From Thermodesulfobacteriota bacterium (GTDB lineage: Bacteria; Desulfobacterota; WTBG01; JAGOGO01), in the NCBI GenBank assembly GCA_026625185.1, contig CP113000.1, positions 2,832,651-2,864,650 of the forward strand: a stretch of DNA of 32,000 nucleotides, read 5' to 3'. Shown piece after piece: positions 201 to 29,792 of this stretch. The position numbers were made by a program, and so were the translations under genes. Within the stretch, counting starts at the first letter, position 1; every line of letters begins with the position of its first letter. The notes beneath the pieces are model-generated. The model saw nothing but the letters and a program-made list of their open reading frames with translations, did not search any database and was not told where the DNA came from.

Positions 201-1319
201 TCAATTGCATCCGGATGATGGCGCGCAACTCGATGGTCCGCAGCCCCCGGCTCGTGATGTTGCCGTAAATGCCTGCAACAATTTCGATTCCGTAACGTCC
301 CCGGTGACTGCCGCCATGCCTTTACCCTTGCTTGCGACGAGAATGGCAGGGGCCTGAACTTGAGTAGAGATCTTGGAGTAATCGGGGGAACTGACCGGCA
401 AGGTATATATTCCAAGGTTGATCTTGTTGGTTTTTAAAGTTTTTTGTGCCGACAGAACGGCGTCTTTTGTCTGGTCCTTAACCGCCTCATCCTTTTCACG
501 GGGAATGAAAATAAAAACAGCGTCTTGACTCAAAGCTACCTTGTTAAGGTCGCTGAGAGACTCCAGGTATTCCCCAATTTTGGGCACTGCCTTGGAATTT
601 TTAAGCTCTACTTTCTCTATTTTTTTCTCCTTTTTATTCTCAATGGGCTTTTGATCGACAACTTTAGAGGTTTCTGTAATTTCATTTTTGACAGGCATCT
701 CTGCTTTGTCGCCATTTAAAGGCTGGGTGGCGCTATCGGTCACTGGTTCAGGGGCCTTGGGTGCGACAGTAAAGCCGGATGTTTTTGCTGCGGCCAAATC
801 GTTAGATGATTTCCCTTTTGTGACCGATGTCTTGAAGATTAGGATGCCGATGACTACCAATAACACGATAAGGCTGACTGCAACCTTGATTCCCTTGGCT
901 TTCGGGGGGGCGTTGCAAGCGCACCCGGGTCCGCAGGAATTCATGCCGCTCTGTGGTTCGAGTGGAGATGGGGGGCTGTTAATGGGCGAATGCTCTGCGG
1001 TCACCACCTTGTCAATTCCTATAAATTGCAGAAGTTCACCCCTTAAGGGATAGCTCCCTCTGCTTACAATTACCCCATCCACCAAAATTAGGGGAAGACA
1101 TTTGTTGCCTTCTCGATTCAGAGCTTCCGCCACACGTTCCTCCCGGGCAAACTCGGCGGTATGTGAAGAGAGGTTGAATCGCTCTACCACCACGCCCTTT
1201 TTCCGCAACCAGTCCAGGTCACTGGAAAACCTCACCAAATCGGGATCAACTTTTGGTCCGCACACCACACTCGAACAGCACATCGGCGGGTCGTACACTT
1301 GCAGTTTGGTTTGTTGCAT
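201..1319 (-). CDS. arsD: ArsD metallochaperone domain fused to a transmembrane helix and a C-terminal domain of unknown function
   Basis: The N-terminal ~105 aa (VYDPPMCCSSVVCGPKVDPDLVRFSSDLDWLRKKGVVVERFNL...LPLILVDGVIV) match the ArsD Cys12-Cys13-Cys18 pattern. Then come CGPGCAC, a TM helix (IKVAVSLIVLLVVIGILIF), a K/E-rich linker, a ~130 aa domain and the tail GGCGPSSCAPSSGCN. SD AAAGGAG lies before the ATG at 1319. Confidence 0.75.
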   Translation of the reverse strand: MQQTKLQVYDPPMCCSSVVCGPKVDPDLVRFSSDLDWLRKKGVVVERFNLSSHTAEFAREERVAEALNREGNKCLPLILVDGVIVSRGSYPLRGELLQFIGIDKVVTAEHSPINSPPSPLEPQSGMNSCGPGCACNAPPKAKGIKVAVSLIVLLVVIGILIFKTSVTKGKSSNDLAAAKTSGFTVAPKAPEPVTDSATQPLNGDKAEMPVKNEITETSKVVDQKPIENKKEKKIEKVELKNSKAVPKIGEYLESLSDLNKVALSQDAVFIFIPREKDEAVKDQTKDAVLSAQKTLKTNKINLGIYTLPVSSPDYSKISTQVQAPAILVASKGKGMAAVTGDVTESKLLQAFTATSRAGGCGPSSCAPSSGCN

Positions 1320-1340
1320 CACTTTCTCCTTTAAATTAGA

Positions 1341-1933: not shown

Positions 1934-3205
1934 TCAAGGAGGCTGGGGAATTCCAGCACCGCGTCTGGTCGAACAGAATCGGCTAAGGCAATCGGATTTC
2001 ATGCAGAACGCATTCAACAAACCGCCGTCGATCTCGTTGCCGAAAAGCGCGCATTTTGCGGCGACAATGCTTTCGGGCAGATAGCGGCCGTACATCTTTA
2101 CCGGTAACTCAGGCACTGCCACAACCGGCGCCGCGGCCAGCGTGAGCAGGTATTCAATCAAGTAGCCGGCGTTTTGGGCGATGGGGCCGCTGTAAGCCTG
2201 CTGCTGCCGGAGACGCAAAACACGTAGTTCGTGCATCGAGCGTCCGAATTCTGATTCCATGAGGTCATCATACGTGGTTAAAATGATCTCCAGCCGCACT
2301 GATCGGGCGCCCTGTGTTAGATAAGCGGCAAAACCCTTTTGGGTTTGGCCGGCGTCAAGGCCCCGACGGACGGCGATGGACGCATCAAATTTCCCTTGGA
2401 GGGCTGCCAATTCGTCCGGTGGGGGCAACTCGACATCGACCAGCACGTTTGAGGCATTGTAAACGCCAGTGTACTCCTCGGTCTCCACGAGGGTGAGGCC
2501 GGGCACTTCCTGCAGCAGCCTTGGCACCCGTCCGAGCACGTCCGGATCGCCGATTATTTTGAAGCCAACCAAATCGTTGACGGTCAGTGCCTCTCGATCA
2601 ATCCGCACGTTTTTGTTGCGAAAACGACGCGCCACCACCTCTTCGGCCTCAACAAAATCCTTCCGCATTTCCTGATCGGAGCTGATGAGCGCGGCAAGCG
2701 GCACACCGGTCGCCACAGCCCTTTGCTCGGCGATAGATTGCGCCTCGGCCTTGATTTCTCGGAAAAGGGCGTCCGCCAGGCGGAATGAAACTTTTTCCGC
2801 CACCCGGGACAGCCGCTTGATCCGTCCGATTGCCGCCAAACGCGGACCGCAACCAGTGATCATCACCGCGTCAATGGGAAGGCGGGGGAAGAAATACTCC
2901 GGGTTTTCCCGAAAAATGTTCGTCAACTGCCGGGACCGAAGGCTCTGGCGTGGCAGGTATTGGATGATACGCTCGCGCAAAAGGCGTTTTTCGGGAATTC
3001 TTTCCACATGAAGCGGCCGCGTGAAGATATTGCCTAAGAACTCGATCATTCGGTCGACGACGGCCGCCGAAATGGCACTTTCGTAGAAAAATATGCGGGT
3101 GACGACGCTTCCGTCTTCAACGTTGAAATCGTCGTTAAGCCAGCGAAGTGTCAAATCAAAAAGTTCGTCCCGATGAGTCAGGGCGGTGATATACATTTCA
3201 TTCAT
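1934..3205 (-). CDS. Divergent RelA/SpoT-domain-like nucleotidyltransferase with an N-terminal domain of unknown function
   Basis: The motifs NDLVGFKIIGD, EEYTGVYNASNVLVDV and VRLEIILTTYDDLMESEFGRSMHELRVL sit where the RelA_SpoT motifs DLxGxRII, YRSLH and EIQIRTxxMxxWAxxxHxxxYK would. Start is M at 3205 or 3196. Confidence 0.45.
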   Translation of the reverse strand: MNEMYITALTHRDELFDLTLRWLNDDFNVEDGSVVTRIFFYESAISAAVVDRMIEFLGNIFTRPLHVERIPEKRLLRERIIQYLPRQSLRSRQLTNIFRENPEYFFPRLPIDAVMITGCGPRLAAIGRIKRLSRVAEKVSFRLADALFREIKAEAQSIAEQRAVATGVPLAALISSDQEMRKDFVEAEEVVARRFRNKNVRIDREALTVNDLVGFKIIGDPDVLGRVPRLLQEVPGLTLVETEEYTGVYNASNVLVDVELPPPDELAALQGKFDASIAVRRGLDAGQTQKGFAAYLTQGARSVRLEIILTTYDDLMESEFGRSMHELRVLRLRQQQAYSGPIAQNAGYLIEYLLTLAAAPVVAVPELPVKMYGRYLPESIVAAKCALFGNEIDGGLLNAFCMKSDCLSRFCSTRRGAGIPQPP

Positions 3206-3244
3206 CCCCTTTGGTTTCCTGTCAGGGCACAATGGCCAAGTTTC

Positions 3245-3484
3245 TCATCTTTCGCTTTTTCGCCGCCTTGAGAATTCGCCTGACTCGACCTTCTCGTGGT
3301 CGATCCACTTGACATAAAAACCCGTGGCGGCCTCGGTGCGGTTGGTCGTGCCTACCACCGCATAGTTTCTCTGCTCGGCTTCGAGGTAGAGGCAGACCAT
3401 CCGCAAGCCAACGCTTTCTAAACCTTCCAAATTTTGATTCAAGGTGATAATCCCTACTAATTGTTTATCGATTTTGATCTGCAT
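3245..3484 (-). CDS. Hypothetical small protein (79 aa), first gene of the GC-rich three-gene insert
   Basis: Intact ORF co-directional with and 12 nt upstream of the RelA/SpoT-like gene. I recognise no family. Confidence 0.4.
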   Translation of the reverse strand: MQIKIDKQLVGIITLNQNLEGLESVGLRMVCLYLEAEQRNYAVVGTTNRTEAATGFYVKWIDHEKVESGEFSRRRKSER

Positions 3485-5125: not shown

Positions 5126-6184
5126 CTAAGCAACCTTCCCTCCCCAGTATTTTGCTCGATATTTTAGAGCTACATTTACCAGACTTATCAGGATCGGGAC
5201 TTCCAGCAATGGACCGATAACGGTTGCAAACGCCTGGTTCGAGGAAATCCCAAAAATCGCTACTGCCACTGCGATAGCTAATTCAAAGTCATTGCTCGCC
5301 GCAGTAAATGACACCGCGGTAGTTTGCCCGTAGGTTGCTCCCATTTTCTTTGCGATAAAGAAGGTAACAAACCACATAAGAACGAAGTAAATGGCAAGCG
5401 GTATGGCCACCCTAACCACATCCAATGGTAATTGGATAATATATTCACCTTTCAGAGAAAACATGACAATGATGGTAAATAAAAGCGCCACCAGGGTAAT
5501 CGGACTAATCTTCGGAGCAAACACTTTCTCAAACCACTCTCTTCCTTTCGTTTTCAGTATTGAAAACCGAGTAACAATTCCTGCAAGGAAAGGAATCCCC
5601 AGATAGATGAAAACGGTTTTCGCTGATTCCAACATAGAGATTTTGACGTTCAATCCTTTAGCAAGCCCAAGCCAATTAAGTAAAAAGGTGATAAAAAACC
5701 AAATATAGACAGCGTAAAGCAATACCTGAAAAATAGCATTAAAACCAACCAACCCAACAGCCAGTTCTCGGTCGCCCTCGGCAAGTTCATTCCAAACAAT
5801 GACCATAGCTATACAACGTGCAAGCCCGACTAAAATCACCCCGATCATGTATTCAGGATAATTATGGAGGAATATGATCGCCAGGACAAACATGACCACC
5901 GGTCCGATTATCCAGTTTTGCAGGAGGGATAAAACCAGAAGTTTCTTGTTGCGAAACACACTTCCCATCTCCTCATATTTTACTTTGGCGAGGGGAGGAT
6001 ACATCATCAGTATAAGGCCAATTGCAATAGGAATCGAGGTGGTACCAATCTGAAGGCCAGCAATAAATTGAGTTATAGCTGGGGCAAAATACCCTATTCC
6101 TATTCCAATCCCTATTCCGATAAATATCCATAACGTTAAAAATCTATCTAACACGGAAAGTTTTTTTGCTTTTACCTCTGTCAT
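5126..6184 (-). CDS. acr3: Arsenite efflux transporter, ACR3 family
   Basis: [13 protein letters not shown]...[40 protein letters not shown] and about 10 TM segments. SD GGGAGGA lies 7 nt before the ATG at 6184. Confidence 0.9.
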
Positions 6185-6252
6185 TTTTATTTCCTCCCTC
6201 AATAATTTCTAAAAGTAATTAAGTATAATAACCTCAATAAGTTAGCTTCATT

Positions 6253-7095
6253 TTACGAATTTATTGGATCTCTTAGCACTCCGAATTTTAAGGGAAAAAT
6301 TTCACCCCGGTATTTAATTTGGGGGACATTCTGATTGGATATCTCGGAAGCCCTCAACCATTCCTCCGTACCCAATTCACCTGATTTAAATACTATTCCC
6401 AGCGATTGCTCCATCCCTTTTCTAATAGCCGTTTCAATCTCACCGGGGCTAAGGTGACAGCCTAAAATTTCTTCTATTGAGGTTAAACGTGAAGTTAGCA
6501 TAACTCTCAAATTTTCCGGTGAAGCACCATTTGCCCCCCAAAGTTTGACCAGAGTTTCAACCTGAGATTCTAAAATAATAGATCCATGTTGCAACAAAGA
6601 GGTAGCATGCCAATACTGAGCGCTCCCGACAAATTTGTGATTATCGTGCACAATATCACCAACTCCACCGGATAAAAAACAAATATCCTTTTGGATTGTC
6701 TTTTCCTTCCCCTGCCGTAACTCCCCCTGGATTCCCAGTAATCGAAAGCCCATGAGTAGTCCTTCACAAATCAATTGATAGGCTGCGGCGGCCTCTTCAG
6801 GTATTCCATCCTGCTTGCCTGCGATAACCGAATACGTAAGATCCCCCTGGTGCAACACTGCCCGCCCTCCGCTCGGCCGTTGAACAACATCAATACCCAT
6901 TTTCCGGCAAACGCTTCTATCTATTTTGGGATCTCGTTGGAAATAACCAAGGGAAACCGCCGCTGGATGCCACTTATAAAACCGCAAGGTGGGAGGAGAT
7001 TTTTCCTCCGCATGCATAGTCAAAAGGGCTTGATCAATGGCCATGTTAAGGGCACCGGCCAAGTGACCATTATTCAGTAATCGCCAGCTTTTCAT
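6253..7095 (-). CDS. Lipoate-protein ligase / octanoyltransferase family protein (LplA/LipM-like)
   Basis: ALNMAIDQALL...LRFYKWHPAAVSLGYFQ...QRPSGGRAVLH...KFVGSAQ are BPL_LplA_LipB catalytic-domain motifs. It overlaps the lipA stop by 4 nt. Confidence 0.8.
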   Translation of the reverse strand: MKSWRLLNNGHLAGALNMAIDQALLTMHAEEKSPPTLRFYKWHPAAVSLGYFQRDPKIDRSVCRKMGIDVVQRPSGGRAVLHQGDLTYSVIAGKQDGIPEEAAAAYQLICEGLLMGFRLLGIQGELRQGKEKTIQKDICFLSGGVGDIVHDNHKFVGSAQYWHATSLLQHGSIILESQVETLVKLWGANGASPENLRVMLTSRLTSIEEILGCHLSPGEIETAIRKGMEQSLGIVFKSGELGTEEWLRASEISNQNVPQIKYRGEIFPLKFGVLRDPINS

Positions 7096-7973
7096 ACAAT
7101 TTCTTGATAAAATGCCGGAGCCTTATAAGAACTCCGTACAAGCGGTCCAGAAGCCACGCTTTTAAAGCCCAAAGCAAGGGCTAACCTTTGCCAATCTTCA
7201 AATTCCACAGGTTCCACATAACGAGCTACCGGCCAGTGTCGGATAGAAGGGGACAAATATTGACCAATCGTAAGCATGTCGCACCCTGCCTCCCTCAAAT
7301 CTTGAAGTACGTTCTCCACCTCTTGTTCGTCTTCACCCAGTCCTAACATTATTCCGGACTTAGTGACCAAACCCGGCATCACCGCCTTCGTTTGCCGTAA
7401 TATGTTAAGGGACAGCGTATAATGGGATCCCCCACGAACCATGGGATACAACCGCGGCACTGTTTCCAGATTATGTGCAAGGATGTCCGGTTGCGCAGCC
7501 AACACCTTGTCAACAGCCTGTTTTGACCCGCCAAAGTCAGGAATCAACAGCTCGACTTTACCGTTCGGACACTGTTCACGCACCATTTTGACCACACTCG
7601 CGTAATGACCTGCCCCACCATCCGGCAAGTCGTCTCTCGTGACGGACGTAATAACCACGTGATCAAGGCCCAGTGCGTTTACTGCCTCGGCAAGCCTTTC
7701 CGGCTCACCTTCATCCAAAGTTTTATCCGGGTTCCCATGGGTAACTGCACAAAAGGAACACCCCCGCGTACAAACATCTCCTAAAATCAAAAAAGTAGCC
7801 GTACCATTGGAAAAACACTCCCCCTGGTTTGGGCAATGAGCCTCCTCACAAACAGTGGAAAGGTGACGGCGTGCCAGAAGATTTCTGATATCTTCGATCA
7901 GCTGAGCACTCATTCCTTTTTTGGCCTCACGAACCTTATTGATTAACCAGTCTGGCGCCCTTACTTCCATCAT
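7092..7973 (-). CDS. lipA: Lipoyl synthase
   Basis: CEEAHCPNQGEC is the auxiliary cluster CX4CX5C and CTRGCSFC is the radical-SAM CX3CX2C. The ATG at 7973 overlaps the lpd stop (ATGA). Confidence 0.92.
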   Translation of the reverse strand: MMEVRAPDWLINKVREAKKGMSAQLIEDIRNLLARRHLSTVCEEAHCPNQGECFSNGTATFLILGDVCTRGCSFCAVTHGNPDKTLDEGEPERLAEAVNALGLDHVVITSVTRDDLPDGGAGHYASVVKMVREQCPNGKVELLIPDFGGSKQAVDKVLAAQPDILAHNLETVPRLYPMVRGGSHYTLSLNILRQTKAVMPGLVTKSGIMLGLGEDEQEVENVLQDLREAGCDMLTIGQYLSPSIRHWPVARYVEPVEFEDWQRLALALGFKSVASGPLVRSSYKAPAFYQEIV

Positions 7974-9373
7974 TTCACATCTGGCGGCATATGAATAGCC
8001 TGTCCGTGCAATGCCTGGCAAACCTCCAGCACTGCCTCAGAGAGAGTTGGATGGCTATGGATAGTATCCATAATAACCTGACTGGGCAGTCCCGCTTTCA
8101 TTGCCAGGGCTATCTCACCGATTAAGTCGGAGGCGTGCGGTCCAATAATATGCGCGCCTAAAATCTGATCGGTCTGAGCGTGAGTAATTATTTTCACTAA
8201 TCCCTCCGGTTCACCCATAGCCTGACCCATACCAAGCGATTTAAAGGGGAATCGTGCGGTTTTAACCGGATAGTGCTTGACCGCTTCTTCTTCCGAAAGC
8301 CCCACCGCGCCATACTCCGGTAACGTAAAGGCACATCGCGGGATAACCCGATAGTCCATTATAGCCCCACGACCTAAGGCGTTCTCCGCCGCGCACATGC
8401 CCTCGGCAAAAGCCACATGCGCCAAAAGCCAGCCGCCGATTACATCACCGGCCGCGGCTATACCGGGGAGATTGGTTTGCAGGTTTTCATCCACGATAAT
8501 GCGACCTTCATCCATAGCTACTCCAAGCTCTTCCAGACCAATGACATCGGTATTCAAGCGTCTTCCAACTGCCAATAATACTGTATCAGGTAAAAGCTCT
8601 TTCCCATTATTAAGAGTAACAACGACACCCCTCTCCGACTCCGAAACTGTCTCAATACTTGCGCTACAGATAATCTCTATCTTTCGTCTTTTCAATACTC
8701 CCTGCAGATAGGCCGCCATTTCAGCATCTTCAGCAGGCAAAATCCGGTCCTTTATCTCCACAATCGTCACCTGGGAACCAAGCTCACGAAAGACAGCTGC
8801 CATTTCCACCCCAATCATGCCTCCGCCCACTACCAGCAGATGAGATGGTAACCAGGAAATATTAAGCATTTCATCCGCCGGAAAGACGCGCGGGCTGGGA
8901 GGAAATACTGGTAGATTTGCTGGACGGGAGCCGGTGGCAATAACTATTTTTGGAGCTTCAAGCAGTTCCGTTTGTCCATCTTTTTTAACTTCAATCTTTC
9001 CACCACCGATCAGCCTCCCCCTTCCTTCAACCAGAGCAATCCGGTTAGCCTGGAAAAGACGCCCGACGCTGGCACGTAACCCTGACACGATTCGCTCCTT
9101 GCGGAGCATAATCGTTGCGATATCAGGCGAGACCTCGACCGGCTTAAAACCGAACTCTTTCGCACGGCGCATAGTCCGGGCCGCTTCCGCCGACGCCCGC
9201 ACAGTCTTCGTGGGGATACAGCCCCAATTGAGACAGATCCCTCCCAGAAATTTTTCCTCGATAACTGCCACCTTGGCTCCGAGCTGTGCCGCCCGGATCG
9301 CTCCCTGGTAGCCGGCCGGACCACCGCCTAAAAAGATAATGTCATAAGAATCGCTCACCGGGGAATTCCTCAC
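7970..9373 (-). CDS. lpdA: Dihydrolipoyl dehydrogenase
   Basis: GGGPAGY FAD site, redox disulfide GGICLNWGCIPTK, and C-terminal HSHPTLSE His-Glu pair. The GTG start overlaps the OsmC stop (GTGA). Confidence 0.9.
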   Translation of the reverse strand: MRNSPVSDSYDIIFLGGGPAGYQGAIRAAQLGAKVAVIEEKFLGGICLNWGCIPTKTVRASAEAARTMRRAKEFGFKPVEVSPDIATIMLRKERIVSGLRASVGRLFQANRIALVEGRGRLIGGGKIEVKKDGQTELLEAPKIVIATGSRPANLPVFPPSPRVFPADEMLNISWLPSHLLVVGGGMIGVEMAAVFRELGSQVTIVEIKDRILPAEDAEMAAYLQGVLKRRKIEIICSASIETVSESERGVVVTLNNGKELLPDTVLLAVGRRLNTDVIGLEELGVAMDEGRIIVDENLQTNLPGIAAAGDVIGGWLLAHVAFAEGMCAAENALGRGAIMDYRVIPRCAFTLPEYGAVGLSEEEAVKHYPVKTARFPFKSLGMGQAMGEPEGLVKIITHAQTDQILGAHIIGPHASDLIGEIALAMKAGLPSQVIMDTIHSHPTLSEAVLEVCQALHGQAIHMPPDVK

Positions 9374-9792
9374 TTAATGATTATCGTTGGCTTGATAATA
9401 ATTTCAGACTTTAAGGATTGATTTATCGTGGAATATTTTAAAGCCATATCAAGGGCCCGCTGCACAACTTCCCGGGTTTTATTTTTTACAACAATTTTGG
9501 GATATAAAGTAAGCCTCTTAAACCATGAGGTCCGGTCAATGAATTCTTCAACCTCGCCTTCAGCTTCACATTCTAAAGATATAAGTTCCATCTTAAAGCG
9601 CTCCATCGCCCAGATGACCATCATAAAATAACAGGTATTCGACGCCGATATAAAGGCGTCCTCAGGAGTAAGAACATTTTCCTTTCCGTATAGGTCAGGG
9701 GGAGCAGAGAACTCCATTTCCACACCATTCTGACACCACGTATACCCAAGGTGACCACCGCGCCATTCAACTTTATTTTTATACAGTGACAT
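9370..9792 (-). CDS. OsmC/Ohr-family protein, apparently a 1-Cys variant
   Basis: ...LTPEDAFISASNTCYFMMV keeps the first conserved Cys. Where OsmC/Ohr carry the second Cys (..CP.S..L), the sequence reads ALKYSTINQSL. Confidence 0.7.
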   Translation of the reverse strand: MSLYKNKVEWRGGHLGYTWCQNGVEMEFSAPPDLYGKENVLTPEDAFISASNTCYFMMVIWAMERFKMELISLECEAEGEVEEFIDRTSWFKRLTLYPKIVVKNKTREVVQRALDMALKYSTINQSLKSEIIIKPTIIIK

Positions 9793-9805
9793 GGTTTTCC
9801 TTTCC

Positions 9806-10219
9806 CTAATCGTTTTCCAGGACTTCTTTTACCGATTTGGCAATTTCGTCCGCTACCGCCTGAATCGCAGCCTGATCCTCATCACCAAAGTGTCTCAATT
9901 TTTTTGGGGCAGAGAGGTTGTGTTTCTTCAGAATATCGGGGACAACCAACGATTTGCTCGGTTTCCCGGAAAACATTTCTGTGCTCTTGGCCGCGCAGAG
10001 TTTCTCACAGCCGTCCACGGTTATGGTGGGATACTTTTTTGCAAATTTCCTTTCTTCTTCCCCACCGGCAATAAACAGAGGCAAACAGATCGTCACTGTT
10101 TCATTCGGCTTAAGATCTGTGAGTACCTTGCGACAAGCGATTCGGGAAATTGTGCCTTCCGGCAACTCTTCACCGCTGCACGACACCATCCCTATCTTTG
10201 TTACCTGGATATCCATCAT
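9806..10219 (-). CDS. DGC-domain putative zinc-binding protein (paralog 1)
   Basis: MVSCSGEE...ICLPLF...ITVDGCEKLCA carries the DGC motif and flanking cysteines. Confidence 0.7.
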   Translation of the reverse strand: MMDIQVTKIGMVSCSGEELPEGTISRIACRKVLTDLKPNETVTICLPLFIAGGEEERKFAKKYPTITVDGCEKLCAAKSTEMFSGKPSKSLVVPDILKKHNLSAPKKLRHFGDEDQAAIQAVADEIAKSVKEVLEND

Positions 10220-10632
10220 TGTTCCTCCTGTACCGCCAGTTCATCTATAACGGTTGCTAATTCGTCAGCAGCAATGGCCGCCAATCTGCGGCCAGTCTCA
10301 TCAAGCTCGCTGATCCCCTCTGGCTTCATATCTTTGTGAGCTTTGTAAAAATCGATTGTCTGAAAACTCCTGGCCACGTTAACCCCTTGCGATTCTGCGC
10401 TCTTTCGCGCGCACTCCTTTGGACATCCGTCAATGGTAATTACCGGGTTTTCTTTTACCAACTGCTTGGTTTCCGTATCTTCAATCACTAATTTTGCCAG
10501 ACAAGTAGTCACCGCACTATTTGGTCTTACTCGTTCTACAAGTTCATAGGTGGTCTCACGGGCAAGGGCGCCGAAAACTTTCCCAATACCACTGCAGGGG
10601 AGCACTACCACCTTTTTATTTTTTTTCTCCAT
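10216..10632 (-). CDS. DGC-domain putative zinc-binding protein (paralog 2)
   Basis: VVVLPCSGIGKVFGALARE...TTCLAKL...ITIDGCPKECA. There is an ATGA overlap with paralog 1. Confidence 0.7.
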   Translation of the reverse strand: MEKKNKKVVVLPCSGIGKVFGALARETTYELVERVRPNSAVTTCLAKLVIEDTETKQLVKENPVITIDGCPKECARKSAESQGVNVARSFQTIDFYKAHKDMKPEGISELDETGRRLAAIAADELATVIDELAVQEEQ

Positions 10633-11080
10633 ATAGTTTCCTCGCTTCTTCTAAAACTTTTTTCTTCATTAATTCAAAGTAGTCCCAATCCTTAAGCAAT
10701 TCATTTTTGTCAGCCTCAAAATCGAGAAGTTCAATCCGGTAAATCCAGCCAGAGTCATACGGGGCCTCGTTAATGAGATAAGGGCTTGCCTCGATCTCCT
10801 GGTTAACCTCAACAATTGTCCCCGTTACCGGTGAAATGATGTTAAACGTGGCTTTAATCGTCTCGATCTTCCCAAGTTCTTGACCTCGTTTTACTGTTAT
10901 ACCCGGGCTAATGGTTTCCAGAAATGCCACATCGCCTTTAAGTTTTTGAAGAAAATCGCTAACGCCTATGACGGCAACATGGTTAACAATGTTCGCCCAG
11001 AAATCTTCGGGACTATACCAATACCCGGTTTTGACCTTAAAAATAAATTTTTCATGGGTATATTCCAAAAATTCTTCCAT
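10616..11080 (-). CDS. gcvH: GcvH-like lipoyl carrier protein
   Basis: VAVIGVSDFLQKLKGDVAFLE...GKIETIKATFNIISPVTGTIVEVN matches the H-protein lipoyl-lysine motif E(S/T)(V/I)KA...SP(V/I)(S/T)G. SD GAGG precedes the ATG. Confidence 0.8.
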   Translation of the reverse strand: MEEFLEYTHEKFIFKVKTGYWYSPEDFWANIVNHVAVIGVSDFLQKLKGDVAFLETISPGITVKRGQELGKIETIKATFNIISPVTGTIVEVNQEIEASPYLINEAPYDSGWIYRIELLDFEADKNELLKDWDYFELMKKKVLEEARKLYGEKK

Positions 11081-11093
11081 ATGTTACCTCGGT

Positions 11094-11438
11094 CTATGGG
11101 TTAAGAGTTTTTCCTACTTCCTTCACAATTTTGTTAATGATAATGCTCCCGGCAAACCTGGCTTCTCCATTGATAACCACTAATGGTGTTGGGAATTTTT
11201 GGTTCACCAAAAGCTGGCCTAACCCGCTCTTTCTTTCATCCGGTGATTCGCGCAAATCAATATATTCAACAGTGATCTGATGAGGATAACTTTCTTCCAA
11301 TGCGGTTCTAAGCTCTTTTACTTTCTGCTGTATTAGCACCGGAAACTCGGGGCTACAGGCTATACTTCCTCACGTACAGCCATCAGGATTGCCCGGCAAA
11401 TTAAGGATCTTTATTGATACCGGATCTTTTTCTTTCAT
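11094..11438 (-). CDS. Selenoprotein candidate: thioredoxin-fold ArsD/YuzD-like protein with an in-frame TGA (residue 23)
   Basis: SD AAGGAGAG lies 6 nt before the ATG at 11438. It reads MKEKDPVSIKILNLPGNPDGCT-TGA(11372-11370)-GSIACSPEFPVLIQQKVKELRTALEESYPHQITVEYIDL...PLVVINGE. The TGA is contiguous and in frame with track ORF 11094..11339. Confidence 0.6.
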
Positions 11439-13613: not shown

Positions 13614-14447
13614 TTACGCTTGTTTTGGTTTCACTCCGCAAACCCTAATGCTTACCACCGCCCGTATAATTTCTCCCACCTTATCGCGCGGTACGCCAAA
13701 ACTTTCACCGATCCCTTTAGCAGTGGGATCATTGGTCCAAGAATCTAAGGAAAGCGAGGACTCACCAATGATCCTGACATCCTGAAATCCGGCCATATCA
13801 ATTCCCCCGAGGTATTCTTGCTTCAATATGGCGCCGGAAAGGCACCCGACATAAGCTGCTATTGAACCCTTTACGCTCTCAGGAAGTTCTCTCAATAGAA
13901 CCATATCAGTGACCATCAGCCTGCCGCCTGATTTCAATACCCGGAAAGCTTCATTAAAGACTCTTCTTTTATCAGGCGAAAGATTAATGACACAATTTGA
14001 AATGATGGCATCCACGAAATTATCCGCCACCGGAAGATTCTCGATCTCTCCCAGCCTGAACTCAACGTTTCCGTAGTCACCCTTTCTCGCGTTTTCTCTT
14101 GCCTTATCAATCATCTCGGGGGTCATATCCACGCCAATCACCTGGCCGGCCTCTCCCACTTTCTTAGCGGCAAGAAAACAATCAAACCCCGCGCCTGAGC
14201 CGAGGTCAAGAACAATCTCGCCCTCTCGCAGAGATGCAAGTACCACCGGATTGCCGCACCCAAGCCCCAGGTTTGCGCCCTCCGGAACTGTCTCCAGTTC
14301 TTCGTCGTTATATCCTATTTTCTTACTTATTTCAAGCACATCCGTGCTTACACAGCATGGATTCGGCGTGCCCCAGCAGGATCCCCCTCCCTTCGCAACG
14401 CCGGCATAACCTTCCCTGACCGCTTTTTTAATGTCTTCCGGTTTAAT
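13614..14447 (-). CDS. arsM: Arsenite S-adenosylmethionine methyltransferase
   Basis: VLDLGSGAGFDCF (SAM motif I), VIGVDMTPEMI, ISNCVINLSPDK, GCLSGA. The N-terminal KPEDIKKAVREGYAGVAKGGGSCWGTPNPCC lies upstream of the track start. There is no ATG/GTG/TTG; SD GGAGGTG lies 7 nt before ATT 14447 (or CTG 14453). Confidence 0.85.
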   Translation of the reverse strand: MKPEDIKKAVREGYAGVAKGGGSCWGTPNPCCVSTDVLEISKKIGYNDEELETVPEGANLGLGCGNPVVLASLREGEIVLDLGSGAGFDCFLAAKKVGEAGQVIGVDMTPEMIDKARENARKGDYGNVEFRLGEIENLPVADNFVDAIISNCVINLSPDKRRVFNEAFRVLKSGGRLMVTDMVLLRELPESVKGSIAAYVGCLSGAILKQEYLGGIDMAGFQDVRIIGESSLSLDSWTNDPTAKGIGESFGVPRDKVGEIIRAVVSIRVCGVKPKQA

Positions 14448-14588: not shown

Positions 14589-15000
14589 TTATAATGTATT
14601 GGCAACTGTTTGGGCTACTGTTTGAGCGTGTTCCTTGATTTGAGCCTTTGACTTTTCGTTTTTATCGAATTCATACAGTCTGTAAGCAACAATTATTTCT
14701 GGTTTAAGTTCTGCCTTTACCCCTTTCATTGTAAGATTGAAAAAACATTTACTAAGGCAGCCTTCCAGGGCAATGACTTTTTTGGCATTTTTCACTAAGT
14801 TTCCCGGGGCGGTATCTTTTTTAAGCGAACCCCCCCCCACTGACCAACACTGTTTTTCCCGGCGCGATTGAATCACATAAAATATTTGCCGCTTCTCTTA
14901 CGATTTCGCCATTAATACAATCCCCCTCACAGCATATCAGGGCAATGGATTCTGATAGCTGCTCTTCCCCTATGATTCCACTACCTTTTTTTTCAGTCAT
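14589..15000 (-). pseudogene. DGC-domain protein (paralog 3) split by a frameshift at a G9 tract
   Basis: The N-part is MTEKKGSGIIGEE..ALICCEGDC..APGKTVLVSGGG and the C-part is SLKKDTAPGNLVKNAKKVIALEGCLSKC.... They are in different frames and join at the C9 run 14830-14838. SD GGAGGAG precedes the ATG at 15000. Confidence 0.65.
14830..14838. repeat. C9 (G9 on the coding strand) homopolymer inside the DGC paralog 3
   Basis: Counted directly: gcgaa-ccccccccc-actgacc. Confidence 0.9.
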
Positions 15001-15132
15001 TTTTTGAATCTCCTCCAATCCTGCGCCGATGAAGTTCATCCGCGCCACAGTGTGTTTTTATCTTCTCCTGCCGTAATGACTTATAATACAAACTCAGAAA
15101 TTCTCCATCTCGATACGGTCAACAATGCTATC

Positions 15133-16214: not shown

Positions 16215-16421
16215 TTATGGTTTTGATAACAACCATGATCTAATTATCTCAGGAGTGGACACATATCCAAAATGTACGACCCTGCCATCAATGACTACAA
16301 CTGGCGTCATAATCCACCCTTCCTTCTTTGCTTCATCCGCCAGAGAGATCAAAATACCGTCTAATGCCCTAGAGCCATTCTCCCGAAGCCAGCTTATGAA
16401 CCCTTTAACAGTAGTTTTCAA
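16215..16421 (-). pseudogene. Thioredoxin/glutaredoxin-fold C-terminal fragment with no intact N-terminal half
   Basis: GFISWLRENG...GWIMTPVVVIDGRVVHFGYVSTPEIIRSWL resembles helix1-beta2...beta3-beta4-helix of small thioredoxins. It has no beta1/CxxC, and the 200 nt upstream has stops in all frames. Confidence 0.4.
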
Positions 16422-16619: not shown

Positions 16620-16961
16620 TCACTCCTTACAACAACCTATTTTTACCTCTTTAGATAGATTTCCCGTAGCCGGTTGTTCTAATCTCTTGGCAACCCTACT
16701 TCTGGTCAGTACCTCCCCAAATTGAGCCATAACCCTGCCTCCGGAGATAGCCATGACGATGGCTTGAACCGTCCCTATCTCCTGATCGGTAATTCCGGCC
16801 TCCTTGGCAACGCCAAGGTAATTTTCCATTCACGGATAACAGCCAATGGCCATTGATGCAGCCATGGAGACCAGGAGAGTTGTTTTGGGTTCTAAAATTT
16901 CATTGTTTCGGGTTGATTTGTAAAAATCACTAAAAGCTTTAGCCTGTCTCCCTGGAAGCAT
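16620..16961 (-). CDS. AhpD-like/CMD-family selenoprotein (CxxU active site)
   Basis: SD GGAGA lies before the ATG at 16961. It reads MLPGRQAKAFSDFYKSTRNNEILEPKTTLLVSMAASMAIGCYP-TGA(16832-16830)-MENYLGVAKEAGITDQEIGTVQAIVMAISGG.... The TGA occupies the second Cys of the CMD CxxC motif, and a SECIS-like hairpin follows. Confidence 0.8.
16802..16818 (-). promoter_or_regulatory. SECIS-like hairpin for the TGA at 16832-16830
   Basis: The RNA CCUUGGC-GUU-GCCAAGG has a perfect 7-bp stem and a G/U-containing loop, starting 11 nt after the UGA. Confidence 0.65.
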
Positions 16962-17424: not shown

Positions 17425-17811
17425 TTAAAAAATCTTTTCTACTAATTGCCCGGAACATCTATTACAACATGTCTTTATTTCTCCCAGCCTTACGGCTTTT
17501 TTTAGTTTTTTTTGGTCGGCTTTAACCACCACGTCGTCATTGGCCATTACCACCATAGCATTAAGAAGAATTTTAATTTTTTTATCCTGATTTTCTTTTT
17601 TTAACGAGTAATGAACCCACTTGCCTTCCCGGCGATCATCAACCAGTCCGGCATTTTTAAGCACACTCATATGCCTGGATATCCTCGGTTGCGACATATC
17701 GAGCACCTGCATCAACTCGCACACGCAGAGTTCCCGCTCCTGTAATAGCTTGATTACCCGTAAGCGGGTATCGTCAGAAAAGGCTTTAAAAATATTAGCA
17801 ATTTTTTTCAT
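17425..17811 (-). CDS. arsR: ArsR/SmtB-family transcriptional repressor
   Basis: FKAFSDDTRLRVIKLLQERELCVCELMQVLDMSQPRISRHMSVLKNAGLV has the wHTH and the ELCVCEL As(III) site. It has an extra C-terminal CCNRC. Confidence 0.9.
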   Translation of the reverse strand: MKKIANIFKAFSDDTRLRVIKLLQERELCVCELMQVLDMSQPRISRHMSVLKNAGLVDDRREGKWVHYSLKKENQDKKIKILLNAMVVMANDDVVVKADQKKLKKAVRLGEIKTCCNRCSGQLVEKIF

Positions 17812-17823
17812 AAGCCACCTTTC

Positions 17824-17851
17824 ATAAATAAACATATAAAGATTTATTTAT
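17824..17851. promoter_or_regulatory. Candidate ArsR operator (inverted repeat)
   Basis: ATAAATAAA-N10-TTTATTTAT lies 13-40 nt upstream of the arsR ATG. Confidence 0.3.
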
Positions 17852-18199: not shown

Positions 18200-18736
18200 A
18201 TGAAACCAAGAGGCCCATTGATGATTGAACACCGACTCATTGAGAAAATGTTCGGCCAATCCCAAAAAGAAGTCATAAAGATGAAAAATAATAAAATAGT
18301 AGATCCACTTTTCATTGATACTATAGTGGATTTTATCCGAACCTATGCTGACCGAACTCATCACGGGAAGGAAGAAGATATCTTATTTGTAAAACTTAAA
18401 ACGAAAAATTTAAACAAAAAAGATAACACAATGATGAATGACTTAATTAACGAACACAGATATGCCCGATCCTTAGTCGTAGCTTTGGTTGATGCCAAAA
18501 ATAAATATATCAGTGGAGACAAATCCTGTTTGCCGGTTATTATCGAAAAACTGGAAACCTTGATTAATTTTTACTCCGAGCATATCAAAAAAGAGGATTT
18601 AGAATTTTTCCCGAATACTGAACTATATTTCACCAAAGAAGAATTAGATACCATGCTCTCCGATTTTTGGGAATTTGACAGAAAAATGATCCACGAAAGA
18701 TATCAAAAAGTGTTTGAAACCTTATCAAAAAAATAG
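18200..18736 (+). CDS. Hemerythrin (HHE cation-binding) domain protein
   Basis: PRGPLMIEHRLIE, ADRTHHGKEEDILF, LINEHRYA and EHIKKEDLEFFP are His/Glu ligand motifs. SD GAGGAG. Confidence 0.8.
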   Translation: MKPRGPLMIEHRLIEKMFGQSQKEVIKMKNNKIVDPLFIDTIVDFIRTYADRTHHGKEEDILFVKLKTKNLNKKDNTMMNDLINEHRYARSLVVALVDAKNKYISGDKSCLPVIIEKLETLINFYSEHIKKEDLEFFPNTELYFTKEELDTMLSDFWEFDRKMIHERYQKVFETLSKK

Positions 18737-18950
18737 ATATGATCCGGAATACAGGAAATTTGTATTGATATTGACCTTACCTACCCCAGCTTGACAAAAC
18801 CCATCAGTATGAAAAATTAGGAACCCGAGGAGGAACTCACACCGCAGGGACGACAGGAAGATTCACAACAATATGAATAAGGATGAATGCCACAACGTCA
18901 GATAACAAAACTTATCCGCATTTACTCAATAACCACCCTCTTTCATCATC

Positions 18951-19811
18951 TTATTTTAAACTTCCCAACCACCCCTCAATCTCCTCTCGCTCGTATGCTT
19001 CCTGCTGAACCGAAAGATCAAGGTTGATAAGTAAGCCGGCGTGTTTTTTAGTTTCGGTATCATTTTGTAAATCAAGATGACGTTCGCGTGATGACCGGAC
19101 ATCTTCGAGGGCTTTTTTAAGGGCGAAACCAATAGATGCGCTCAGGTCAATGTTGTTTGCCTTAAACTTTGGGTTAATGCCGTTTTCGGCTACTGGTTCG
19201 GCAACATGGGCAAGCTGCTTCATCTTAGTAAAGGCAAAATCCATAATCTCCCATCCAAGCATCTCTTCTTTCTGAAACACCCAGGATATGCGGATATGCT
19301 GGAGCATCTCAGTATATTTAGCGGCTACCATCTCCTGGACCTTTTCCACAAACCCGGCTGGCAATTTATTTTCTCCCCCTGGTTTTCCGGCAGCCATGTC
19401 GGGTTTAAGCCGGTCATGCACCCGCTGAAACTTTTTGGCATGAATCGCCGATTCCCATGCCTCACGGTGAAGAACGCGCTTGATGTGCGGATCTTCAACC
19501 TGATCAGCTTCCCCGTGGTAATGCGGAATCAATTTAAGCTCGTACTCAACATAGGATTTAAATATCGTAGCCCGGTTAGTTGGGTCAAAGGGATAGGGCG
19601 CAGGAGTCAGATTGGGTTCTCCACCCAATTTACCGATGATCATTCCAAGCCAGTGCATATGCCACATCTCTTCTCTGGCACGAGAAAGTAAGCCTGCACC
19701 AAGAGGTGTATCCTCCCCTTCCAGGTAACCATGAACTAAATAGCGGATAATCGCAGCATGCTCATCAGTCAGGTCACGATTGACCATTGCAATTAATTCA
19801 TGTTTGCTCAT
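18951..19811 (-). CDS. Ferritin-like / bacterioferritin-like diiron-fold protein (two ferritin-like halves)
   Basis: LTDEHAAIIRYLVHGY and REEMWHMHWLGMIIGKLGG in the first half, and EMLQH...KQLAHVAE in the second. Confidence 0.6.
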   Translation of the reverse strand: MSKHELIAMVNRDLTDEHAAIIRYLVHGYLEGEDTPLGAGLLSRAREEMWHMHWLGMIIGKLGGEPNLTPAPYPFDPTNRATIFKSYVEYELKLIPHYHGEADQVEDPHIKRVLHREAWESAIHAKKFQRVHDRLKPDMAAGKPGGENKLPAGFVEKVQEMVAAKYTEMLQHIRISWVFQKEEMLGWEIMDFAFTKMKQLAHVAEPVAENGINPKFKANNIDLSASIGFALKKALEDVRSSRERHLDLQNDTETKKHAGLLINLDLSVQQEAYEREEIEGWLGSLK

Positions 19812-20121
19812 AGTGTTCTCCTAATTTTTAAAATTAAGAATCAATATAGTTTAAATTTTTTCCTATGTGATCGTTGTCGATAAAATTGGTTATTAGTTTA
19901 TTATATCAACCAAATTCTCTGATATGACTCTTAAAAAATTATTTTTTGAACACCAACCACAAGGCAAATAAACTGATAAATAACTTTAATTATAGATTTT
20001 ATGTTTTTGTTATTTTTATATTATTTATATTATTTTAGAAAAAAGGAAAAATCTCGAACCAATGCATATTGCTAAGGCGCTCACAGCAAAGGACAACTGA
20101 TGAAGGAAGGTTTATAATTAT

Positions 20122-20167
20122 AAAAAAAAGTAAGGCATCTCGTCGTCAGTTGGGACAAAATGCCTTA
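20122..20167 (-). terminator. Rho-independent terminator of cspA
   Basis: On the minus RNA: UAAGGCAU-loop-AUGCCUUA (8 bp) followed by C and U8 (+ strand A8 at 20122-20129). Confidence 0.7.
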
Positions 20168-20188
20168 AATAATCAAGTTAGAAAAAAT

Positions 20189-20389
20189 TTAAGCTTTTGC
20201 TACGTTTTTGGCTACTGGTCCCCGGTCGTTTTCTTCAACATCAAAGGTAACCCGGTCACCTTCGGCAAGTGTTTTAAATCCCTGCATCGTTATAGAAGAA
20301 AAGTGAACAAATAAGTCTCTCCCATCTTCGTGTTCAATAAAACCATAGCCCTTTTTATCACTAAACCATTTAACGACTCCTTGTGCCAA
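20189..20389 (-). CDS. cspA: Cold-shock protein CspA family
   Basis: [30 protein letters not shown] carries the RNP1/RNP2 motifs. Confidence 0.95.
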
Positions 20390-20490
20390 AGCGTTAACCT
20401 CCTTACAAAAAATTAATTAAAACAGTAGGTCGCCACTCTAACAAAGGAATCTTTCCTTCCGAGCGAAACCGACCTGTAACTACCTAATTT

Positions 20491-20521
20491 TTTATAAACT
20501 ATTGTAAAGTGAAATGTCAAG
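20491..20521 (-). promoter_or_regulatory. Candidate sigma70 promoter of cspA with a long 5' UTR
   Basis: On the minus strand, TTGACA (20521-20516), an 18-nt spacer, then TTATAA, about 100 nt upstream of the ATG. Confidence 0.4.
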
Positions 20522-20587
20522 CAAAAAAATACGTCACCTCCACAAGCACCTAAACATAAAAAACTTAACTGTTACCGATAGTTCCTG

Positions 20588-24661: not shown

Positions 24662-24737
24662 TCTTTCCTCCTCCAAAAGGGGATAAAATAAATTTTGGAT
24701 AGCCACTATGACGTAATTACCGGAAAACCGTTATTTT

Positions 24738-27773: not shown

Positions 27774-27798
27774 GGGCTGTATCCCTTCGAAAAAAAGG

Positions 27799-29661: not shown

Positions 29662-29764
29662 TTTTGCTCTTTTGCGGATAATAGCAAAATTTAAAATAAG
29701 AGACCAAAAATGTATAAATAATAACCATTTTAAAAAAATTAGCCACAAAATTATTTTCTTCTTA

Positions 29765-29792
29765 TTGACTTGAAACAACTTTTTGATATAGT
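29765..29792 (+). promoter_or_regulatory. Candidate sigma70 promoter of hsp20
   Basis: TTGACT (29765-29770), a 16-nt spacer, then TATAGT (29787-29792). SD GGAG precedes the ATG at 29820. Confidence 0.5.

Follow-up and report, generated by a model that had tools for sequence, protein, structure and literature searches.

A seven-gene module built around a GcvH-like lipoyl carrier was identified within an arsenic resistance (ars) island of a Thermodesulfobacteriota bacterium, at positions 6253-11080 on the minus strand of the 32,000-nucleotide stretch of contig CP113000.1 analyzed here (hereafter, the window). A pattern scan of one genome per species in 185,579 species yielded at least 523 confirmed matching loci, all relatives being metagenome-assembled genomes (MAGs). 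Mapping of the window proteins onto 80 of these loci, which were fetched, demonstrates that the genes for the carrier, two DGC-domain proteins and an OsmC-like protein form a conserved unit that is co-inherited across phyla in the context of arsenic genes, and that genes for lipoate assembly and reduction are an optional addition. The module is tentatively interpreted as a thiol-redox relay of the arsenic regulon that operates on a private lipoyl carrier, a reading which, in this general form, we hold to have somewhat less than an even chance of being right. The interpretation of an earlier note on this DNA, in which a self-contained lipoyl-carrier redox module wired into an arsenic island had been proposed, is partly supported by these results.

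The genes of the module, all on the minus strand and listed from the upstream end, are as follows.

10616-11080, minus strand: GcvH-like lipoyl carrier (Pfam GCV_H, 98 bits)
10216-10632, minus strand: DGC1 (Pfam DGC, 60.8 bits, cut-off 27)
9806-10219, minus strand: DGC2 (Pfam DGC, 61.8 bits, cut-off 27)
9370-9792, minus strand: OsmC-like protein (Pfam OsmC, 37.7 bits)
7970-9373, minus strand: Lpd (Pyr_redox_2/dim; TIGR01350, 496 bits, cut-off 408.8)
7092-7973, minus strand: LipA (TIGR00510, 370 bits, cut-off 310)
6253-7095, minus strand: LplA/LipB/LipM-superfamily enzyme, hereafter Lpl (LplA-B_cat PF21948, 115 bits; PF03099, 51 bits)

All seven open reading frames are present where the earlier note had placed them, searches with hidden Markov models match each of the proposed parts (GcvH-like, two DGC, OsmC, Lpd, LipA and a ligase-type enzyme) to its family, and the junctions are exactly as had been described: ATGA overlaps between DGC1 and DGC2 (10216-10219), Lpd and LipA (7970-7973) and LipA and Lpl (7092-7095), a GTGA overlap between the OsmC-like gene and Lpd (9370-9373), an overlap of 17 nucleotides (nt) between the GcvH-like and DGC1 genes, and a gap of 13 nt between DGC2 and the OsmC-like gene. 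Because of the ATGA overlap with Lpd, the start of LipA is placed at ATG 7973 rather than at TTG 8021. The claim that translational coupling continues into acr3 did not hold, as the gene for the Acr3 arsenite efflux permease (5126-6202, minus strand, probable ATG 6184; TIGR00832, 454 bits, cut-off 283) begins only 50-68 nt past the end of the module. A promoter/terminator scan detected no terminator-like site in this gap, and co-transcription of acr3 with the module is plausible; the scan revealed no enrichment and no internal terminator, which neither proves nor breaks an operon. As had been stated, the carrier is accompanied by no partner of the usual kinds: no GcvP, GcvT, E1 or E2 gene was found among the proteins of the 32-kb window, and none of these families is recurrent in the 80 related loci.

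The order GcvH-DGC1-DGC2-OsmC is intact in 73 of the 75 loci that have enough upstream sequence, the hosts of this core including Desulfobacterota, Chloroflexota, Nitrospirota, Riflebacteria, the PVC group, Aminicenantes, Actinomycetota and Bathyarchaeia. Since the same order is kept by nearly all evaluable loci from so many phyla, the arrangement is far beyond chance. The Lpd-LipA-Lpl block was complete in 32 of 65 evaluable loci, partial in 11 and lacking in 22, the last group comprising loci of Riflebacteria, Lentisphaerae, Kiritimatiellota, Geobacter, Aminicenantes, Actinomycetota and Bathyarchaeia. The parts of the self-contained seven-gene unit envisaged earlier are real, but the invariant unit consists of four genes (GcvH-DGC-DGC-OsmC), Lpd-LipA-Lpl is an optional add-on, and an eighth gene is often added. 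In MAGs of Chloroflexia, Nitrospiraceae and Dehalococcoidia, the Lpd-LipA-Lpl proteins are 50-69% identical to those of the window, and a range of 55-72% was obtained for Chloroflexota, Nitrospirota and Dehalococcoidia. This indicates that the block is transferred along with the cassette, as dedicated genes that differ from the housekeeping set of the host.

The link to arsenic genes was conserved elsewhere in a neighborhood census that had been set beforehand as the test on which it could fail, with Acr3, ArsR, ArsM or ArsD carried by 67 of the 80 loci. Among the 35 loci with a full 20 kb of sequence, Acr3 and ArsR were each found in 30, an ArsE-type thioredoxin in 27, an ArsC of the low-molecular-weight (LMW) phosphatase type in 20, thioredoxin (Trx) plus CcdA in 20, ArsP in 14 and ArsM in 12. 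The possibility that the module is a general substitute for ArsC was rejected, given that the LMW-phosphatase-type enzyme co-occurs with it in these 20 loci. In the window, the ArsR, ArsM-like, Acr3 and ArsD genes are all co-oriented with the module, and elsewhere an ArsR gene lies directly upstream of the carrier gene in several loci (L002, L003, L008, L046 and L084). The flanks of the cassette vary between loci, which marks it as mobile within ars islands. It does not appear to reside on the sequenced plasmids of cultured bacteria, because a tblastn search of 72,556 plasmids gave no match to DGC1 and remote matches only to the OsmC-like protein.

The carrier contains the ETIKA lipoyl-lysine motif reported in the earlier note, its lysine being K76 (codon 10853-10855). 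This residue aligns with the lipoyl-lysine of the pea H-protein in PDB (1dxm, E = 4e-22), and the lysine of the ET(I)K motif is unchanged in 75 orthologs. The carrier falls below the equivalog cut-offs for GcvH (89.5 vs 115.85 bits for TIGR00527 and 102.6 vs 117 bits for NF002270) and scores higher on GcvH models than on GcvH-related models. Because of these sub-cut-off scores and the lack of P and T partners, it is set apart from GcvH proper, of which it appears not to be a member. Among the enzymes that could maintain its lipoyl group, Lpd and LipA are canonical at the equivalog level. Lpd has the redox disulfide C47-C52 (CLNWGC) and a C-terminal HPTLSE motif (residue 441) with the His-Glu dyad. 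Its identification as a MerA-like metal reductase was considered and rejected, as it passes the Lpd equivalog cut-off, stays below that of MerA and has no C-terminal Cys pair; GR and other models were also below cut-off. The LipA Fe-S motifs CX4CX5C and CX3CX2C, as well as RSSY, are kept in 41 orthologs, and the window protein is a canonical LipA, reaching only 25.6 bits on the LipS2 model (cut-off 270). For Lpl, every NCBIfam subtype equivalog model scored far below its cut-off and the best PDB match was T. acidophilum LplA (E = 5e-12); Cys139-Phe and the lysine of KFVGSAQ are unchanged in 39 orthologs, the former presumably resembling the catalytic Cys of LipM. Lpl is probably a lipoyl/octanoyl-transferase or ligase dedicated to the carrier, and both ligase and octanoyltransferase activity are possible.

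The DGC proteins, and not the OsmC-like protein, appear to be the partners most tightly tied to the carrier. DGC1 and DGC2 are paralogs (28% identity), each with four Cys residues, that of the D-G-C motif included, that are unchanged in its orthologs (C13, C44, C70 and C74 in 77 orthologs of DGC1; C14, C45, C71 and C75 in 78 orthologs of DGC2). An AlphaFold2 (AF2) model of DGC1, with a predicted local distance difference test (pLDDT) value of 92, has a flavodoxin-like alpha/beta fold in which each invariant Cys is found either where one of strands 1-3 terminates, on its C-terminal side, or where the helix after it begins; according to the model, the four should converge on one site. No function can be transferred to DGC by structure, since a Foldseek search of this model against PDB returned generic flavodoxin-like folds only (best E = 0.015, TM-score 0.46), and a sequence search of DGC1 against PDB gave only spurious matches to de novo beta-trefoil proteins. 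The DGC family (PF08859) is small, with 617 representative clusters among 1.84 billion proteins.

Several natural fusions were found in this family. Besides DGC1::DGC2 fusions, there are proteins in which DGC2 is followed by a CxC linker and an ArsE-type Thioredoxin_3 domain, one of which is then followed by Trx and CcdA, and a DGC2 with a CxC-bearing extension occurs within an ArsR-GcvH-DGC1-DGC2 operon. A 285-aa DGC::GcvH fusion that retains the lipoyl-lysine is encoded in L085 (5515-9989), and the same arrangement is present in L086. The L085 variant, which is divergent from Acr3-ArsR-ArsC, contains six DGC-domain genes (the fused one included), two ferredoxin-like genes, a gene for a Cys-rich 123-aa protein and a DUF166 gene, and no recognizable OsmC-like gene was detected in it. 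On the basis of the fusions, DGC1 and DGC2 are likely to act together and to be direct partners of the carrier that are linked to ArsE-type thioredoxins. To judge from the variants with ferredoxins and without OsmC, more than one protein could serve as the terminal client, the OsmC-like protein being one of them. Two further arrangements were observed on short contigs: an Lpl-like gene with a DGC::DGC fusion of 432 aa and then a ferredoxin-like protein behind it (L089, 421-3606), and a DGC::Thioredoxin_3 fusion followed by thioredoxin and CcdA (L088, 39-1930).

The OsmC-like protein belongs to a family with 378 relatives at E <= 1e-5 in the protein database; among the best 120 of these 378, identity ranges from 72 to 91%, and those with a named source come from different phyla, between which an identity of 75-90% is kept. 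Its AF2 model (pLDDT 78) confirms the OsmC fold, and Foldseek matched it to 2onf, 1qwi, 1nye and Ohr structures, the top matches being Ta0195, E. coli OsmC and Ohr, with the uncharacterized Ta0195 as the best. When aligned to solved OsmC/Ohr structures, C54 of the SNTCYF motif corresponds to the peroxidatic Cys and Glu44, in a 'PE' motif, to the catalytic Glu. At the position where Ta0195, VCA0330, YhfA and OhrB have the resolving Cys, there is an invariant Ser121 (KYSTINQSL). Both observations agree with the earlier reading of these two sites. The description of the protein as a '1-Cys' OsmC stands family-wide, C54 being the only Cys kept in all 81 orthologs, but not for the clade of the window, as C20 and C75 are also kept in this bacterial clade and are not conserved in the archaeal or actinobacterial clade. 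In addition, His14 stands where Ohr has the Arg of its 'GGR' loop, and conservation in the family does not extend to R11. At the OsmC-type Arg position, which we set from the E. coli OsmC sequence, there is no conserved Arg and the family reads FSAPP. Two of the four features by which active Ohr/OsmC peroxidases are defined are missing from the protein; in those enzymes, the Arg and the Cys pair are described as belonging to the catalytic apparatus (PMC5384416, PMC5962072). Because the catalytic Arg also appears to be lost, the interpretation of this protein as a plain peroxidase is weakened.

The gene that often seems to be the eighth member of the module encodes a DUF1462-like protein with a thioredoxin fold and a CxC-type motif, here C-T-U (11094-11438, minus strand; Pfam DUF1462, 26.8 bits). 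It lies 13 nt upstream of the GcvH-like gene, and its frame runs through TGA 11370-11372 to ATG 11438. A DUF1462-like gene was found directly upstream of the carrier gene in 26 loci. The orthologs in about 30 related loci read GGC-x-C-S/G, vs DGC-T-[TGA]-G in the window, a classical Cys/selenocysteine (Sec) pairing that makes the window protein a selenoprotein candidate. The hairpin after TGA 11370-11372 was no better than shuffled sequence, and no family, models of the selenocysteine insertion sequence (SECIS) included, was matched in an Rfam scan of the window. The G-C-x-C motif of the DUF1462-like protein is present also in the linkers of the DGC fusion proteins. A second selenoprotein candidate was observed at 16620-16961 (minus strand), where a CMD/AhpD-family gene contains TGA 16830-16832 within AIGCYP-[TGA]-MENYL, so that a CxxU motif replaces the CxxC of the family; its C-terminal tail is GCCKE, and with Cys substituted, the Pfam CMD match (42.6 bits, residues 8-78) extends across the stop. 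AhpD-type proteins are clients of lipoyl proteins in Mycobacterium.

In the mechanism favored here, electrons would flow from NADH via Lpd and the lipoylated GcvH-like carrier to the thiols of the DGC and OsmC-like proteins and finally to an arsenic-linked oxidant. The lipoyl group would be built on K76 of the carrier by Lpl and LipA, whose presence is observed and whose specificity for this carrier is presumed, and would be held as a dithiol by Lpd and NADH, as the equivalog-level match of Lpd suggests. By analogy with Ohr/OsmC and the Trichomonas L-protein/H-protein/OsmC pathway, the dithiol arm may then dock on its clients, namely a DGC1/DGC2 heterodimer with two Cys4 sites and the OsmC-like protein with its single reactive Cys54, and reduce the loads on their thiols (a Cys-sulfenate or Cys-S-As adduct resulting from attack on the oxidized substrate), the arm ending as a cyclic disulfide. 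The product, a trivalent arsenical or a repaired thiol to judge from the context, could be passed to Acr3, ArsP, ArsM, ArsE, the CxC/CxU protein and Trx-CcdA of the island. The oxidant could be an arsenical in the pentavalent state (oxy-, methyl- or thio-) or else a hydroperoxide. Since most full loci have ArsC as well, the attractive candidates are pentavalent arsenicals apart from arsenate; an ordinary hydroperoxidase is disfavored by the ArsR context, by the anaerobic life of the hosts and by the loss of both the Arg and the resolving Cys.

In a bolder form of this proposal, which we consider possible and on balance doubtful, the lipoyl arm works directly on arsenic, either as the two-electron donor of a novel pentavalent-arsenical reductase or as a covalent swinging-arm carrier. 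In the former case, the reductase would act on compounds beyond the reach of ArsC, namely methylarsonate, dimethylarsinate, trimethylarsine oxide and thio- or methylthio-arsenates, and the oxygen would be accepted, or an As-S intermediate formed, by Cys54 of the OsmC-like protein. In the latter, the arm would ferry As(III) or the trivalent methylarsenical MAs(III) between the DGC Cys4 proteins and the efflux/methylation machinery. If this were true, the cofactor that has been known for a century as a victim of arsenite would be a working part of a widespread anaerobic arsenic detoxification, and the DGC family would gain its first function.

Several observations weigh against a thiol-redox relay of this kind. 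The dihydrolipoyl dithiol is the classical high-affinity target of As(III) in cells, and since it binds As(III), the relay should be poisoned by its own inducer; the paradox is that of an arsenic defence built on arsenite's classical target. An in-cassette Lpd is absent from one third of the loci, ArsC is present in 57% of the full loci, where plain arsenate reduction is already covered, and the DGC fold is without a characterized structural relative. Ferredoxin-like proteins take the place of OsmC in some variants, and the DGC proteins may themselves take part in electron transfer, perhaps as Fe-S proteins. Neither the catalytic Arg nor the resolving Cys of active Ohr/OsmC peroxidases (PMC5384416, PMC5962072) is present in the OsmC-like protein. 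The paradox would be resolved by the main rival explanation, arsenic capture and hand-off, which we regard as rather unlikely. Here the reduced arm would chelate As(III) or, more suitably, MAs(III) or aryl-As(III), for which two thiols are exactly what is required, and deliver it by ligand exchange to the four Cys of DGC1/DGC2, Cys54 of the OsmC-like protein, the CxC/CxU protein and ArsE, and from there to Acr3, ArsP and ArsM; the carrier would be a protein-bound chaperone or buffer, similar to British anti-Lewisite (BAL), for glutathione-free organisms, and Lpd would only prime the dithiol. Lipoate has the highest known affinity for As(III) among cofactors, the island is rich in Cys motifs of the metalloid-chaperone type (the ArsD fusion, CxC/CxU and C-terminal CC/CxC tails), Acr3 is the commonest neighbor, fusions join DGC to the carrier as well as to CxC linkers, and a third of the loci dispense with Lpd. 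On the other hand, As(III) sites usually consist of three Cys, and the four invariant Cys of DGC are more like those of Zn or Fe-S sites; the ferredoxin-like partners in variant loci point to electron transfer, and a stoichiometric sponge needs no catalytic OsmC fold with its Glu kept.

A plain lipoyl-dependent hydroperoxide reductase, a prokaryotic equivalent of Trichomonas L/H/OsmC or Xylella Ohr that is induced with arsenic against secondary oxidative stress and has the DGC proteins as accessory Zn proteins, is in our view unlikely. It would draw on the combination of Lpd, H-protein and OsmC, which is precisely the published set for peroxide detoxification (PMC7946386, PMC5384416), and on the conserved peroxidatic Cys and catalytic Glu of the OsmC-like protein. 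Against this, both the catalytic Arg and the resolving Cys are gone family-wide, and an Ohr-like protein without catalytic residues was reported to be devoid of peroxidase activity (PMC4069020). Strict anaerobes of sediments and groundwater make up most of the hosts, the cassette is located in ars islands and not in contexts of the OhrR/OxyR type, and the two invariant DGC genes and the OsmC-free variants would be left unexplained; in favor of a peroxidase again, 1-Cys enzymes with an external resolving thiol are known in other peroxidase families. Less probable still is a role in sulfur or thio-arsenic chemistry, in which DsrE/TusA-like DGC proteins would load sulfane sulfur or a thioarsenical on the arm, as in LbpA, for desulfuration or thioarsenate formation. 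GcvH-like carriers with their own lipoylation genes do exist apart from glycine cleavage (PMC10332631), the module of L001 is bordered by rhodanese and CCG (HdrB/D-like) genes, the habitats are sulfidic, and unexplained thioarsenicals are formed by strain ND132 (bioRxiv 10.1101/2022.10.17.512643). Yet sHdr, DsrE, TusA and LipS1/S2 genes are not recurrent in the 80 loci, rhodanese is found in one lineage only, and the carrier fits GcvH models better than GcvH-related ones. Finally, the canonical, equivalog-level Lpd and LipA, together with the part of GcvH as an intermediate of lipoyl relay in Bacillus-type pathways, could suggest ordinary or back-up lipoate metabolism that happens to lie near ars genes, either as spares for arsenite-poisoned enzymes or as the only H/L pair of the genome. 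This is very improbable, as the carrier is under the GcvH equivalog cut-offs, GcvP, GcvT, E1 and E2 are missing from the window and not recurrent in related loci, DGC-DGC-OsmC always follows the carrier, the cassette moves between phyla along with ars genes, and 22 loci have the core without Lpd, LipA and Lpl.

Between about 17835 and 201, the minus strand forms a single long arsenic island. Apart from the module, the DUF1462-like gene and Acr3 described above, it contains the following genes, listed from the upstream end.

17425-17835, minus strand: ArsR-family regulator (Pfam HTH_5, 67.7 bits; motif ELCVCEL), which heads the same-strand island and lies outside the module
16620-16961, minus strand: CMD/AhpD-like gene, the second selenoprotein candidate
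Between the CMD/AhpD-like gene and the third DGC gene, minus strand: PEMT-like methyltransferase
14589-15048, minus strand: frameshifted third DGC gene, upstream of the ArsM-like gene
13614-14339, minus strand: ArsM-like methyltransferase
Downstream of the ArsM-like gene, minus strand: signal-peptide CxxC protein and DsbD_2 membrane protein
Upstream of the module, minus strand: two ArsE-type Thioredoxin_3 proteins
Downstream of Acr3, minus strand: thioredoxin and DsbD_TM (CcdA-like) protein
1341-1580, 1648-1959 and 1934-3232, minus strand: three small or unknown-type proteins, between CcdA and ArsD
201-1322, minus strand: ArsD fusion, the end of the island in the window

Flexible Cys-rich tails are repeated across the proteins of this island. 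In the ArsD fusion, the ArsD part corresponds to residues 5-127 of the product, and the remaining extension of about 245 residues consists of a hydrophobic segment, a lysine/glutamate-rich region and the C-terminal Cys tail GGCGPSSCAPSSGCN; ArsA, if there, would fall past the window edge next to this gene. The short protein of 1341-1580 resembles CMD/AhpD, contains CQPC and has the tail GACCSDSNSKCCG, that of 1648-1959 (103 aa) ends in GGCGPGCSCG, and the 432-aa protein of 1934-3232 had no Pfam match. The third DGC gene changes frame within a stretch of nine G (nine C on the plus strand) at about 14831-14839 and, once the frame is corrected, matches DGC across the whole domain (39.8 bits); an error of sequencing, decay to a pseudogene or phase variation could account for the split. 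Two apparent gene fragments were also observed on the minus strand: the C-terminal half of a Thioredoxin_3/ArsE-like protein at 16215-16421 (27 bits), with stop codons upstream, and a 79-aa piece with an NAD synthase match at 3245-3484.

Outside the island, the region 18200-29778 contains a hemerythrin gene (plus strand), a ferritin/rubrerythrin-like gene, a gene for a 1011-aa protein with a spermine-synthase-like domain, a gene for a PMT_2 glycosyltransferase-like membrane protein, and a 1372-aa open reading frame that had no Pfam match; the GC content drops to 0.36-0.39 past about 28 kb of the window. In 25 of the 80 census loci, corrinoid or Fe-S type proteins were observed in the module-bearing ars islands. 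They include a PF04060 'FeS' protein of about 180 aa, MtrA-like plus FeS proteins, the reductive activator of corrinoid enzymes RACo, CCG (HdrB/D-like), MauE/DoxX and rhodanese, with examples in L001 (5811-6332, 14171-16177 and 17320-18675) and in L002 and L003 (MtrA+FeS genes). Such genes hint that anaerobes may subject arsenic to corrinoid-dependent methyl chemistry.

How far drinking water and rice become contaminated is governed by the cycling of arsenic in anoxic sediments, aquifers and paddy soils, and no enzymes are known as yet for the anoxic reduction of methylated arsenicals and thio-arsenicals. The cassette would provide the DGC family with its first functional context and would add a third non-canonical role for H-protein-like carriers, after sHdr-LbpA and the Trichomonas OsmC pathway. 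It is apparently undescribed: a full-text literature search found no paper on it, the only related mention being the DGC gene of ND132. The earlier statement that no description of such an operon was known is to this extent upheld, but it needs to be qualified, since the L/H/OsmC combination is known in a eukaryote and the presence of DGC in an ars operon had been noted.

The closest known system is the L-protein/H-protein/OsmC peroxide reductase of Trichomonas vaginalis, in whose hydrogenosome L and H proteins without P and T proteins pass electrons to OsmC (Nyvltova et al. 2016, as cited in PMC7946386, PMC5384416 and PMC10332631). It shares with the module an incomplete glycine cleavage set, the predicted route from Lpd and a lipoylated H protein to an OsmC-family protein, and an anaerobic host; the component set of L, H-like and OsmC-family proteins without P/T is also found in the module. 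Like the OsmC-like protein, TvOsmC is without the canonical OsmC Arg/Glu pattern (PMC5384416). Unlike the Trichomonas system, the module is a prokaryotic operon in ars islands with an ArsR-type context, it always includes two DGC Cys4 proteins and often its own LipA, ligase and CxC/CxU protein, and its OsmC-like protein is without the resolving Cys. The Ohr/OsmC peroxidases, such as Xylella Ohr (Cussiol et al. 2010), agree with the OsmC-like protein of the module in their fold, in the helix that bears the peroxidatic Cys and in the 'PE' motif that provides the catalytic Glu, and their reductant is a protein-bound dihydrolipoyl group recycled by Lpd (PMC5384416, PMC5962072). In contrast to them, the module has Ser121 for the resolving Cys, His14 at the Arg position and no OhrR, and the nearest structures of its OsmC-like protein are uncharacterized members of the 'third group', e.g., Ta0195 and VCA0330. 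By analogy, the lipoyl dependence of Ohr/OsmC and the Trichomonas pathway provide the strongest outside support for the proposed relay.

Other parallels concern single elements of the module. In M. tuberculosis, electrons pass from NADH via Lpd, DlaT and AhpD to AhpC. As in the proposed relay, a lipoyl protein there serves a small Cys adaptor and a terminal thiol enzyme, and the window island also has two CMD/AhpD-family proteins (1341-1580, and 16620-16961 with CxxU); however, the carrier of the module is a free H-protein-like protein and not an E2 subunit, there is no AhpC, and it is DGC, not AhpD, that adjoins the carrier. Some ars operons possess a disulfide-reductase system of their own, consisting of the arsT thioredoxin reductase and the arsX thioredoxin. 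Both they and the module combine a pyridine-nucleotide disulfide oxidoreductase with a small dithiol carrier inside an ars operon, but in the module the reductase is Lpd, the carrier is an H-like protein, and there are additional DGC and OsmC-like clients. The sHdr-LbpA system employs a GcvH-like lipoate-binding protein for a purpose other than glycine cleavage, and genes for a ligase and for sulfur insertion accompany that of the carrier (PMC10332631); the module resembles it in encoding a GcvH-like carrier with its own lipoylation genes and differs from it in using canonical LipA instead of LipS1/S2, in the absence of sHdr, DsrE and TusA, and in its arsenic context. In P. mercurii ND132 (Pseudodesulfovibrio), an arsenic-induced ArsR-ArsP-ArsE-DGC operon has been reported, with DGC annotated as of 'unknown function' (bioRxiv 10.1101/2022.10.17.512643); its induction lends indirect support to the putative arsenic-dependent expression of the module. 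The ND132 operon places a PF08859 DGC beside an ArsE-type thioredoxin, its triad is also present in L001, and DGC::ArsE fusions exist, whereas it contains a single DGC and no GcvH-like, OsmC-like, Lpd or LipA genes. Taken by analogy, the module may work like the L/H/OsmC, Lpd-lipoyl-Ohr and reductant-supplied ars systems.

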